64,000 nucleotides of DNA, from positions 2,336,001 through 2,400,000 of the forward strand of contig OY970340.1 in the NCBI GenBank assembly GCA_963717465.1, in the 5' to 3' direction. Shown piece after piece: positions 40,343 through 43,810 of this stretch; positions within the stretch are counted from its first letter, which is position 1, and every line of letters begins with the position of its first letter. The DNA is from Candidatus Bathyarchaeota archaeon. GTDB taxonomy: Archaea > Thermoproteota > Bathyarchaeia > Bathyarchaeales > Bathycorpusculaceae. The notes beneath the pieces were generated by a model that saw only the letters and a list, made by a program, of their open reading frames with translations, did no database searches and was not told where the DNA came from. A program made the translations under genes and the position numbers.

Positions 40343-40585
40343 GCAATTATGTCTCCCTCAAAACTAGTAAACTATTGAATTAAATTGAATTAAAATGACA
40401 ATTCATCAGTGGTTTAATTCTGTACAGTTTACAGTAAGCCATTAGTAAATTGGAATAATTCAAGACTAATGAATTAATAAAAATAGGACATATTTTTCTT
40501 TCTCGATCAGTTACTTATACCATTTGTTAAAAAATTCTCTAAAAAAACTTTAAAAAAATAAAAAAGGATGTTTGGATTATTCTTC

Positions 40586-42883
40586 TTATGGTCCGATCGG
40601 GCCGATGTTGGCTGAGTATACTTTTGCGAGTGCCGCTTTGAAACACCAAGCTCCAACTTCAGGGCTAAGCTGCTCCGCATCGTTCGGTATTGTAACGTCA
40701 ATGTTCCAGTCAGTCCATCCATGCAAGAATGGCTCCTCACCAGGCAACTCGGGACGCCACCAACCATGCTCAGGCGAAACAATCTTCGGATTAACGCCGA
40801 AATCGTACCGTACTTGTTGCATGCATCTTCCAACAGGAGTCTCAATGTAAACCCACTCGCCATCACCAATACCCATATTACGCGCCGTTAGTGGATGCAA
40901 CTTTACACGTGGAAAAGGCCGCAAATGACGCATCAAACTAATATGCCGCAATTCACCGTGATGAGCTTCCTGGAATCTTGCTCCACTGCACAAAATCAAC
41001 GGAAAGTCCTTAGCGATGTCAGGCGCACTGATCGGTGTCCAAGCACACTCCTGATAATACGGCAATGGATCATAATCGATCTGCTCCAGAATAGTTGAGT
41101 AGAAAGCAACTTTACCCTCAGGAGTACCAAAGCCTCTGACCTGTCCAGTCTCAGGATCAAGCTCCTCATACTTCTTGAACCTAGGTTCATACGGCGGAAC
41201 ACCCTTCCACTCCTCAATCACCTGTTTGCGCGTCCAACCAGCAGGCTCATAGAAAATGTCCTGAAACTCTTCTAGGGTTTTCCATCGCCAAACTTGATCA
41301 ATTTTTTCTTTGCCAAGCGTTCCAACTGCGAGGTCACGGTATATTAAGGCGTCATCTTTTAGATCCCACAAGCCAGGTATTTTCTCAGGCACTGCGCGAT
41401 CGCCAGCGATCTCAAACTCGATTTGACCTTGTCCTGAAACTGTCGCGTAGCCGGAATTTCTCTCAAATTGACTTGTTCCAGGTAATACGTAATCTGCGAT
41501 CATTGCTTCAGGCGTCATTTGAGCACATTCAATGTATACGAATAGTTCAAGCTTCTTCAAACCCTCATAAGCCTTCTTGATGTTTGGATAATTCCTCAAT
41601 GGACCGACTTCGCCAGAAATCATAGCTTTGATTGGATAGGGCTTCTCAGACACCATCGTGTCTATGAACGTTGGCCAGTTTGGACCTCTTGATCCAGAAG
41701 AGTGAGCACCACCCGTCCAGTATCCTTTAGAATCAGCTGCCTGATTAATCAACGGAGCAATCGTAAAGTTCAACGCTCTGTATTTATCGATTCCTACCTG
41801 CTTCATCATTTGTTCAACGTCAGCCTGTTGAACTATGTCATGGATTGCCATTGTTGCATTCATGAATTTCGGTTTTGCGTGTAGGTATTCGCCGCCTTCA
41901 ATATCGATGTTGCCGGTTAACGCGGGCATCATGTATTTTGCGCGAACGTTGCTTAAAGAGTTCCTGCCTGATGATTCAATCGCGTAGGCAAACGGGAAAG
42001 TGCATGGACTGTTCTTCGCTATGAACCTTGCTGCTTCCCTGATCTTCTCAGCTGGAATCCAAGTTATCTCTGCAGCCTTCTCAGGCGTATACTGCTTAGC
42101 CCGTTCCTTGAGCTTGTCAAATCCAAAAGTCCATTTCTCCACAAAATCATGATCATACAGGTCCTCTTCAATGAGCACGTTTATCATTGCCATAAACAAT
42201 GCAGCATCAGTCCCAGGTCTAATCGCCAACCATTTTTCAGAAAGCCTCGCAGTCTCGCTGAATCGCGGATCAATACAGAGCATTTTCGTGCCAGCCTCCA
42301 ATCCCGCAACGAAAGCAGGCCAAGAATAAGTCCAAGACTCACTCGGGTTCGTGCCTGCAACAAAGATACCTTTCGTCTTGCCAGGGATAATCATTGCATA
42401 CGTAATTCCCACGCCATAACCCAATCCTAGGGCTTGGTTCGTGGGTCCAGCTCATGTCTGAGCCGCAATCGAACCAAAATTCGGACTGCCAATCAAAACA
42501 AAATAACTAGCAAGCCCTAAACCTATGTTTGCGGCTCGACCTGTACCCCAGAAACCACAAGTAGTTTCAGCACCATACTTTGCAATGATTTCCTTCATCT
42601 TTTCGGATATTTCGCTTATTGCTTGTGCCCAGGATATTATTTGCCATTTGCCTTCGCCACGTTTGCCAATGCGCTTCATTGGGTACATTGGCCTGTCCTT
42701 GTGGTAAATGTATTCTAAGCTGTACTTCCACTTTTGACAGTACGGCCCGGGGTTAAACGGGCTTTCCCAGTCAGGCTCAACCTTAGTGATTTTTCCGTCT
42801 TCAACTGTCTCGAGCAATTGGCAGGATCCAGTACTGCAGAAACCGCATATGCATCTATGCATCTCTTTTTTAACTTCACTCAT
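40586..42883 (-). CDS. Molybdopterin (bis-MGD) oxidoreductase, acetylene-hydratase-like clade; predicted selenoprotein (Sec144, 765 aa)
   Basis: The two track ORFs are in the same frame, separated only by TGA 42452-42454. N-terminal CGFCSTGSC...C [4Fe-4S] motif, GSPNF...QT-U-AGP, IDPR, RPGTDAAL, C-terminal FPLIL...HPLTA...EHGWW. Confidence 0.85.
42408..42445 (-). promoter_or_regulatory. Candidate bacterial-type SECIS hairpin inside the CDS
   Basis: CCCACG-AA-CCA-AG-C-CCUA-GGAU-UGGG-UU-A-UGG-CGUGGG starts 7 nt after UGA; the apical loop begins GG at +25. Confidence 0.65.
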
Positions 42884-42978
42884 TATTTAATCTCCTAACT
42901 CATTTATCTCCTAATTCTTGTTTGCTTCTTCAGCACCGAATTGGATGTAACAGAAAATTAATAAAACTTGCGGTTTTA

Positions 42979-42997
42979 TTGTCGAAAATTTCAACAA
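42979..42997. promoter_or_regulatory. Imperfect palindrome upstream of the Mo-enzyme TATA box
   Basis: TTGTcGAAA-A-TTTCaACAA just upstream of minus-strand TTTATTAA (~42958-42965); adjacent Lrp gene. Confidence 0.4.
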
Positions 42998-43288
42998 TTT
43001 GTCATTGTGTATTATTTCTAACTTACATTTTGCAACATTGTTACAAATATTAGTAATTTTTTAAAACATATTCTCAAACAGTTCCGTCATAATTTTGCGA
43101 TAAAGTTCAGGGTTAATCAGTTATCTAAGTCTGTTAGTCCGAGAAATCCCATTTAACATTGGCTCAATTATAACCTTAAGCAAATCGACTTAACCAATAA
43201 GCGAATGCAGAAGTTCATATGGCTGAACTTAACAAGTTTTATTTTTATCATTTGTGTTACTCTAGTCCTTAATTATATGCAATAATTT

Positions 43289-43810
43289 TTAAGGTTGAAA
43301 AAGTGACTCCAAATTTCGCAGTGAAAAGGGTTTTGGAAACTTTTTGCCCGTGTAAAACATGAAGCTGTTTGTTTCAACATTTGGACGAAACATTGATTCT
43401 TTTTGCATTCTGTCAGATAGTTCTAGATAACTGTTGTATGTTTTGTGTGCTGATACGACTACCCAAGTGGTTCCTGCGAAACTTTGCTCCATAAACACGC
43501 ACAGTATTTCGGGCTGTTTTTGAATCAATTCTTGAGCTTCTTTAGCTTGTGCTGGTGTAATCACATCACTCGTTTTTGCGAATGAAAATACAATAAAGTC
43601 TAAGCCCATTTTGTGGAAGTCAGGTATTACAGTGTATTCTTTTATGTAGCCCTCTTGCTCTAACTTCTTTTTTCGTCTGGACAACGTTGCATTGCTTATT
43701 CCTAAGGTCTTGGCAACAGCTCTATCACTTTTGCCGCCAAGCGACATTAGAGCAAACAAAGCCTTCAGGTTTTCCTGTGCTTTCTTGTCCGACGTGTCTT
43801 GCTTGCTCAT
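43289..43810 (-). CDS. Lrp/AsnC-family transcriptional regulator
   Basis: SDRAVAKTLGISNATLSRRKKKLEQEGYIKEYTVIPD HTH. Confidence 0.9.
   Translation of the reverse strand: MSKQDTSDKKAQENLKALFALMSLGGKSDRAVAKTLGISNATLSRRKKKLEQEGYIKEYTVIPDFHKMGLDFIVFSFAKTSDVITPAQAKEAQELIQKQPEILCVFMEQSFAGTTWVVVSAHKTYNSYLELSDRMQKESMFRPNVETNSFMFYTGKKFPKPFSLRNLESLFQP

Follow-up and report, generated by a model that had tools for sequence, protein, structure and literature searches.

We describe a hairpin that lies within a protein-coding gene of an archaeon, directly behind a UGA codon that is read as selenocysteine (Sec). The gene encodes a molybdopterin oxidoreductase of the MopB/DMSO-reductase superfamily and is located in a 64,000-nucleotide stretch of a Candidatus Bathyarchaeota genome (contig OY970340.1, positions 2,336,001 to 2,400,000), which is called the window throughout, and the UGA is its codon 144. 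The hairpin exists, is under selection at the RNA level, goes with UGA and not with cysteine (Cys) codons, and is found in a genome with archaeal-type Sec machinery and in a gene with no recognizable element in its untranslated regions (UTRs). We consider it, with a probability of about 0.7, to be a local, in-gene Sec recoding signal for UGA-144 that would be used by this archaeal-type machinery. We infer its role in Sec insertion, as well as the identity of its reader, from comparisons of sequences. Coordinates of all features are presented in Table 1.

The hairpin after UGA-144 and its conservation

The open reading frame (ORF) of the window gene contains exactly one in-frame TGA. Pfam matches above the cut-offs were obtained for the Fe4S4 (PF04879), molybdopterin (PF00384) and MGD-binding (PF01568) domains, and the PF00384 match, which covers residues 67-519, runs across the UGA. 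The closest NCBIfam models are those of thiosulfate reductase PhsA (253.6 bits, cut-off 694) and formate dehydrogenase alpha (Fdh-alpha; 233.1 bits, cut-off 666). Both scores miss the cut-off by a wide margin, and the protein is assigned at the superfamily level only. Neither a twin-arginine leader nor an adjoining partner-subunit gene was seen for the window copy. The alignment column of UGA-144 is occupied by Cys in all of the 157 other aligned homologs, and we take this column to be the position of the Mo-ligand Cys. The 621 codons downstream of the UGA evolve under purifying selection. Among the paralogs described below dN/dS is ~0.1 on either side of the UGA, and for the window copy and paralog p2054k it is ~0.15 before and ~0.09 after the codon; these values on both sides indicate that the gene is read through. 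Since TGA is an ordinary stop codon in this host, where it terminates 253 of 1032 long ORFs, the UGAs that specify Sec need to be marked.

The stem of the hairpin begins at the seventh base past the UGA, within the ORF, and an AA internal loop separates its lower and upper helices. The 6-bp CCCACG/CGUGGG stem and the AA loop just after the UGA, as described in an earlier note on this DNA (hereafter the original prediction), are present in the sequence and are recovered by RNAfold. The minimum free energy (MFE) of the 66-nt fold is -21.8 kcal/mol (z -2.36; equalled by 3 of 200 dinucleotide shuffles), and that of the 54 nt following the UGA is -19.9 kcal/mol. An upper helix had been predicted as well and exists, but in a different register from the proposed one with a bulged C and a GGAU loop: both the MFE structure and RNAalifold prefer a 7-nt loop, UAGGAUU, in which alignment columns 30-34 pair with columns 42-46, although the changes seen among the paralogs fit either register. 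Depending on the method, the upper helix measures from 5 bp (RNAalifold) to 8 bp (MFE), and the distance from the UGA to the loop is 22 nt in the MFE register or 24 nt in the register with the bulged C. G residues occupy positions 3-4 of the MFE loop, and the alternative register gives the GGAU loop. The loop is a GGGA tetraloop in copy p1822k, corresponding to the GGAU-type register, and GGAGUUA in p2799k. Within or adjoining the apical loop, 10 of 11 paralogs retain GG although their peptides differ.

These paralogs were found by a tblastn search of the host genome, which identified 11 copies of the gene with 44-94% protein identity. Eight of the copies are intact and three (p133k, p616k and p2799k) are broken elsewhere by frameshifts or stops; the genome also has one Cys-type relative and one C-terminal fragment of the family. 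In all 11 copies the same codon is TGA and the fold behind it is the same, and each of the eight intact copies has exactly one TGA, always in the catalytic Cys column. In the protein collection that we searched, all 11 appear as split ORFs of ~600 aa. The spacer between UGA and stem is 6 nt long in 10 of 11 paralogs; in the remaining one, p1822k, which shows 44% protein identity, the stem has moved by one base and this shift of the lower helix is offset by a synonymous Val change.

RNAalifold, run without an input structure, recovers the lower helix (columns 19-24 with 51-56) and the upper helix (columns 30-34 with 42-46), with compensatory changes at 4 of 11 pairs. On the 78-column alignment of the 11 paralogs, 89% of the pairing cells are paired as compared to 83.8% in shuffles (none of 500 reaches 89%), both-sided changes occur at 5 of 14 pairs, and pairing falls to 23-47% when the 3' partner is slid along the alignment. 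The compensation can be synonymous on both sides, as in Leu CUA with Leu UUG changed to UUA with UUA, and p2799k carries GGGGUU/AACUUC in place of the window pairing, on another peptide. Among 7 paralogs, the fraction of identical residues that are encoded by identical codons is highest at codons 146-160, where it is 0.774 against a gene mean of 0.567 (sd 0.078). This is the top window of the gene, with codons 243-246 and 372-373 nearly as high. Synonymous sites are near saturation between most paralogs (pS 0.63-0.79), and the pairing that is kept in spite of this suggests that the hairpin has been retained for a long time.

The stability of the fold exceeds what the peptide needs. In the synonymous control the peptide was fixed and the codons were redrawn by genome usage, with 1000 variants of 54 nt for each copy. 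Only 23 of 1000 variants of the window copy are as stable as the native sequence (z -2.2). The native hairpin beats its synonymous controls in all 11 UGA paralogs, with z from -1.5 to -3.8 and between 0 and 77 of 1000 variants equally stable; the strongest value (z -3.8, 0 of 1000) belongs to p2799k, where the fold is kept on a different peptide. Distant homologs from three sources served as a second control, comprising 175 loci of which 129 could be mapped at codon 144. None of these 129 has TGA at this codon, 120 have TGC or TGT, and the other codons found in 9 are probably due to misalignment. For the 120 Cys-coding homologs the mean z is -0.17 (sd 0.93), with values of -1.5 or below in 7 of them. 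The hairpin is thus found in 11 of 11 UGA paralogs, with synonymous covariation, and not in the 120 Cys homologs. A hairpin of similar geometry follows 51 of 11831 open-frame TGC, TGT or TGG codons genome-wide (0.43%), which can serve only as a rough background rate because the geometry descriptor is leaky, its forced closing pair not having held. The MFE distributions after all 4464 open-frame TGAs and after other codons overlap, and therefore MFE alone cannot find the signal.

The same arrangement in hdrA-mvhD, the Sec machinery and the flanks

A second gene family of the host shows the same arrangement. The hdrA-mvhD fusion gene (L210) contains two TGAs within Pfam domains, and a hairpin starts 6 nt after each of them (-25.8 and -22.8 kcal/mol). 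Fusion genes with two TGAs are present in the host genome and in four others (G424, G432, G436 and G209), and in these five genomes 10 of 10 UGAs are followed by a hairpin at 6 nt, with energies from -22.8 to -27.4 kcal/mol. The hairpins of hdrA-mvhD and of the molybdopterin oxidoreductase have in common the 6-nt spacer, a 16-nt 5' arm and a loop that starts from base 23, and differ in sequence. Homologs of hdrA-mvhD were found in 161 of 200 other genomes of the class. The 29 best loci have Cys codons at both sites and 61-76% identity, and at the first site these Cys orthologs fold with only -4.6 to -15.2 kcal/mol despite a nearly identical peptide. Among 14 further loci with stops, 13 are without TGA at both sites, and the remaining one, in G209, has TGA and a hairpin at both. 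In G436 a Cys paralog lies beside the Sec copy, and its fold (-5.1 kcal/mol) shows no hairpin.

The host genome is a single contig of 3.05 Mb with 40% G+C, 88% complete by marker count. Its archaeal nature, assumed in the original prediction, is confirmed by models for archaeal UMP kinase and archaeal-type TyrRS, which score above their cut-offs in the window. SepSecS is present (488.9 bits) and adjoins the first of two tRNA-Sec genes, both of which have a 4-bp T stem; an acceptor stem of 9 bp can be read in the sequence. Two ORFs of ~740 aa are fusions of PSTK and the archaeal SelB, with Pfam matches to KTI12/PSTK, GTP_EFTU, D2 and aSelB_III; of the 581 positions of the bacterial selB model both SelB homologs match only 2-338, and each fusion gene lies near a tRNA-Sec or Sec genes. 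SelA was not found in the genome (the best match scores 20.5 bits, the cut-off being 267.9), and the winged helix of bacterial SelB (PF09107, SelB-wing_3) has no match in it. The proposal that the archaeon runs a horizontally acquired bacterial SelA/SelB/tRNA-Sec system does not agree with this inventory. PSTK-aSelB fusion systems have been described in Bathyarchaeota and in a single Archaeoglobus (Mukai et al. 2022, PMC8762117). The host has the fusion of this type in two copies, together with SepSecS and tRNA-Sec. The second copy (2827363-2829725; L009/L278) is 54% identical to the first, has altered G1, G3 and G4 motifs and directly adjoins the second tRNA-Sec gene.

Among 60 other congeners drawn, the fusion occurs in three (G424, G432 and G436), with one copy each, and Sec use is thus patchy within the genus. 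In G424 and G432 no more than ~10 kb separates the Sec-type hdrA-mvhD from the PSTK-aSelB gene.

The flanks of the molybdopterin oxidoreductase genes were searched for any other signal. The immediate poly-U tract noted in the original prediction is present: the oligo-T begins 21 nt past the TAA of the window gene, and such a tract lies within ~35 nt of the stop in all eight intact paralogs. Oligo-T directly after the stop leaves no room for a SECIS (Sec insertion sequence) within the 3' UTR, and the most stable 50-nt fold within 200 nt of 3' flank reaches only -4.8 to -12 kcal/mol in the 8 paralogs. The Rfam SECIS families gave no match at E<=10 at the 8 paralog loci with 1.5-kb flanks, and at gathering scores Rfam finds only a tRNA-His in the window. 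The 5' flanks were examined because fdhA of M. jannaschii, a similar gene, has its SECIS in the 5' UTR. In a crude motif search, which is not a covariance model, no shared hairpin and no complete GAA+SSS core were seen in the 300 nt upstream of the 8 starts. These 5' flanks have 28-34% G+C, with a ribosome-binding site (RBS) and a TATA-like box in common. By the same crude search GAA+SSS occurs in 3 of 8 3' flanks, at unrelated places. Rfam, flank folding and motif scan thus agree with the earlier statement that no archaeal or eukaryotic SECIS is present in the 3' UTR. The combination of archaeal-only machinery with a UTR SECIS, which would have pointed away from a bacterial-type element, is seen in its first half: archaeal-type SelB and SepSecS are the only ones present, but no UTR SECIS was found.

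Comparison with known signals and alternative explanations

The prototype of the bacterial element (bSECIS) is that of E. coli fdhF, and the window hairpin resembles it in lying inside the ORF, directly 3' to the Sec UGA, and in being part of a formate-dehydrogenase-like Mo enzyme gene. The bSECIS model of Zhang and Gladyshev specifies an apical loop of 3-9 nt with one G or more among its first two positions, an upper stem measuring 4-16 bp, a distance of 16-37 nt from the UGA to the loop, and an MFE of -7.5 kcal/mol or lower (PMC13188914). The window hairpin lies within these limits in position, loop size, upper stem (5-8 bp), spacing (22-24 nt) and MFE, so that the bacterial-type SECIS geometry claimed for it in the original prediction fits the published model. 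For the loop G the outcome depends on the register, since the Gs are at loop positions 3-4 in the MFE register. The similarity does not extend to the machinery. In contrast to the bacterial Sec system, the host lacks SelA and the C-terminal winged helix of SelB, which in bacteria binds the SECIS; it has PSTK and SepSecS for synthesis and an archaeal-type SelB, and its tRNA-Sec with the 4-bp T stem is unlike the bacterial 8/5 type.

The archaeal element (eaSECIS) of Methanococcus and Methanopyrus is located in the 3' UTR, with the exception of M. jannaschii fdhA, where it is in the 5' UTR (PMC9499178, PMC9622424). The users of eaSECIS and the host share PSTK, SepSecS and aSelB, and the enzyme class of the window gene is that of the fdhA exception. 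However, the window hairpin is within the gene and 6 nt from the UGA, whereas eaSECIS elements lie 70-1500 nt away in a UTR; it has no GAA_A internal loop, which in eaSECIS lies below three S-S pairs, and the UTRs at these loci are too short and too A+T-rich for such an element. For the eukaryotic and Asgard kink-turn eSECIS, no Rfam counterpart was found at the 8 paralog loci. A further comparison is with the Sec codon redefinition element (SRE), which begins 6 nt after the UGA. In SEPN1 this element is a stem-loop downstream of the Sec UGA that promotes read-through of UGA and UAG (PMC2248747). The SRE and the window hairpin are both coding-sequence stem-loops just past a Sec UGA in systems with synthesis of the PSTK/SepSecS type, but the SRE helps a 3'-UTR SECIS bound by SBP2 and no UTR SECIS was found at the window gene. 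Since none was found, the window hairpin would have to be the main signal.

Reviews from 2022-2026 locate the SECIS elements of archaea and eukaryotes in untranslated regions and those of bacteria alone in the gene, and describe the factor that links SECIS to the ribosome in Archaea as unknown (PMC13188914, PMC11227280, PMC9499178, PMC9622424). In the main texts of these reviews and of PMC8762117, PMC9723677, PMC5424206 and PMC4989117, no description of an in-gene archaeal SECIS was found. In the main text of Mukai et al. 2022 the words SECIS and hairpin occur 0 times and the marking of the UGA is not addressed (PMC8762117).

If the hairpin acts as the recoding signal, the following mechanism may be proposed. 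With the UGA in the A site of the ribosome, the 6-nt spacer would place the hairpin's base at the mRNA entrance, and the apical loop would then be ~22-25 nt downstream of the UGA. The hairpin could recruit the factor that delivers Sec-tRNA, which would be the PSTK-aSelB fusion or a partner of the fusion. Alternatively or additionally, it might delay the action of the release factor until the delivery factor wins. There is, in our estimation, an even chance that Bathyarchaeia with PSTK-aSelB use a third mode of Sec decoding, combining synthesis and delivery of the archaeal/eukaryotic type with a bacterial-style hairpin at 6 nt and no UTR SECIS. In such a mode the hairpin would be read, at the ribosome entrance, by the fused factor or, in the host genome, by its GTPase-degenerate second copy in the role of an adaptor. 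Where the SECIS lies would then depend neither on the domain of life nor on the choice between the SelA and the PSTK/SepSecS pathway, and a local signal could be the older state.

An archaeon that has a local hairpin for each Sec UGA, and neither a UTR element nor a bacterial SelB, would violate the rule that archaeal elements are confined to UTRs. The hairpin is a short, defined RNA that could be used as bait for the missing archaeal factor. Selenoprotein finders based on UTR SECIS elements will miss these archaeal genes and hence underestimate the use of Sec in Bathyarchaeia. Eleven Sec copies in one genome, with none found in 64 congeners, represent an unusual investment in selenium.

Several points weigh against the hairpin as a recoding signal. 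The 11 paralogs are kin, and the pairing statistics overstate their independence. Pro and Gly codons (CCC/GGG) make up the lower helix and the synonymous variants still average about -13 kcal/mol, which means that the peptide by itself accounts for some of the stem. Genome-wide, 28 of 4464 open-frame TGAs are followed by a hairpin of this geometry, which is a small excess over the 0.43% of the control codons. In hdrA-mvhD, 4 of 29 Cys orthologs fold with -18.8 kcal/mol or lower from the same start at the second site, one Cys ortholog reaches -19.3 at the first, and covariation is absent since all five genomes have the same stems. As for the reader, no RNA-binding domain able to recognize the hairpin was seen, and binding of SECIS by the archaeal SelB is not known, the archaeal mechanism being described as 'still unknown' (PMC9622424).

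The alternative that survives best, though we consider it unlikely, is that the hairpin is only a helper, slowing termination or aiding read-through like the SRE, with the true SECIS elsewhere on the transcript or acting in trans. The SRE of SEPN1 provides a precedent (PMC2248747), and the two gene families share the geometry of the hairpin and not its sequence, which would suit a steric effect better than sequence-specific binding. However, no second element was seen: the 3' flanks hold the oligo-T, the 5' flanks only the RBS and the TATA-like box, and Rfam detects no SECIS. Moreover, the GG of the loop, conserved on differing peptides, hints at more than a steric block.

It is considerably less probable that the family was acquired from a bacterium in the form of a selenoprotein gene and that the hairpin is a disused bacterial SECIS. 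Such an origin would be in line with the fit to the bSECIS model, with the many bacterial sequences among the homologs at 30-35% identity, and with the distribution of the family, which was not found among the 64 congeners searched, four other Sec users included. In fact, the Sec molybdopterin oxidoreductase family was found only in the host genome and a near-identical one, and the matches of 63-79% identity in the protein collection belong to one or the other of these two. Among 30 relatives there is no homolog at E<=1e-50, and 400 genomes of the class hold no Sec-type ortholog, only Cys forms with 34-42% identity. Scans of genome contigs and metagenome contigs gave only homologs of 27-41% identity, and all mapped ones are Cys. 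The bacterial homologs come mostly from Eggerthellaceae and Coriobacteriia and are likewise all Cys; no Sec-type bacterial source of the family was found, and a search of 5.8 billion proteins returned no truncated Sec-type homolog outside the host lineage.

In a midpoint-rooted FastTree phylogeny of 165 sequences with a length of 650 aa or more, which did not include shorter ORFs, the three broken paralogs or P0060-P0121, the 8 intact Sec paralogs group together in a single clade (support 0.98), whose sister consists of two Cys proteins from metagenomes and whose neighbours are all Cys. A single Sec clade with a Cys sister indicates, as far as the tree can tell, that the UGA and hairpin of this family arose once. 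The neighbours of the clade bear mixed archaeal and bacterial labels of metagenome-assembled genomes, and the donor can therefore not be named. The family may have been transferred into the lineage long ago, given that 64 congeners were searched without finding it. The recent import of the gene that the original prediction offered as an option is contradicted by the saturated synonymous sites, the single Sec clade with Cys neighbours and the absence of TGA from the 129 mapped homologs. The disuse of the hairpin is difficult to reconcile with pairing that is kept through saturating synonymous divergence, down to the 44% identity of p1822k, and with a like hairpin in archaeal hdrA, whose Cys orthologs lack it. 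Without a working signal the product would end at codon 144, yet the later codons are under purifying selection.

Slightly less probable still is a fold that arises as a by-product of a conserved peptide (GP..GVG) and G+C-rich codons, without a role of the RNA. The stability of the synonymous variants favours it, as do two paralogs in which 7-8% of the variants are as stable as the native sequence. Against this, all 11 paralogs deviate in the same direction, compensatory synonymous pairs are present, the peak of synonymous conservation lies exactly at the hairpin, the 120 Cys homologs show no excess stability, and p2799k keeps its fold on a different peptide. The least probable explanation is that translation does end at the UGA and that the paralogs are decaying or consist of two ORFs, to which the three copies broken elsewhere could point; against it stand the eight intact copies with their one TGA each at the catalytic Cys column, the dN/dS of ~0.1 on both sides of it and the PF00384 domain that spans it.

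Other UGA candidates and the surroundings of the gene

Table 1. Features of the selenoprotein gene, its hairpin and its flanks (window positions unless given in kb of the genome)
Feature	Position	Strand	Basis or remark
Selenoprotein gene, 765-codon molybdopterin oxidoreductase	40586..42883	minus	single ORF + Pfam
ATG start	42883-42881	minus	
TAA stop	40588-40586	minus	
UGA codon 144, read as Sec	42454-42452	minus	Cys column in homologs
Spacer GCUGGA, 6 nt, UGA to hairpin base	42446..42451	minus	
Hairpin, candidate in-gene Sec recoding element	42408..42445	minus	RNAfold, RNAalifold
Lower helix CCCACG/CGUGGG	42445-42440 with 42413-42408	minus	
Upper helix	within 42437-42430 with 42422-42414	minus	
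Apical loop	42429-42423	minus	
Shine-Dalgarno-like AGGAGA, 7 nt before ATG	42891..42896	minus	common to most paralogs as AUAGGAGAUA
Three T runs (6, 7, 7 T), likely archaeal oligo-T terminator	40541..40565	minus	inferred
11 family loci (kb)	122.8, 130.8, 478.7, 616.7, 1132.9, 1211.2, 1822.1, 2054.8, 2376.6 (window), 2494.1, 2797.3		

A genome-wide list of selenoproteins by codon-usage scores was too noisy, dropping even hdrA, and was abandoned. When 20 read-through candidates were compared with Pfam, only hdrA-mvhD had domains spanning its TGAs; of the others, ten are neighbouring same-frame genes, one is an IS240 transposase and the rest have no or partial Pfam matches. The IS240-type transposase (2012790-2013935, minus strand, L225) has its TGA inside the DDE domain, shows no hairpin and is probably a broken copy. 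In an ORF of the MttB family (1121390-1122979, plus strand, L215) an in-frame TGA is present at codon 340, and the PF06253 match covers only residues 22-281. The fold after this TGA is weak (-10.9 kcal/mol), and the ORF could be either broken or a selenoprotein gene that lacks the hairpin. Another ORF (2822990-2824228, minus strand, L211) has two in-frame TGAs 60 codons apart and no Pfam match at E<=0.001. A hairpin-like fold (-17.6 to -19.6 kcal/mol) follows its second TGA, which we did not count as evidence.

Upstream of the window gene there is an A+T-rich gap of 400 nt (window 42884-43288), and several of the paralogs have a TTAAATAT box ~60 nt before the ATG. A gene for an Lrp-family regulator (43289-43810) is located directly upstream of the window gene, on the same strand.

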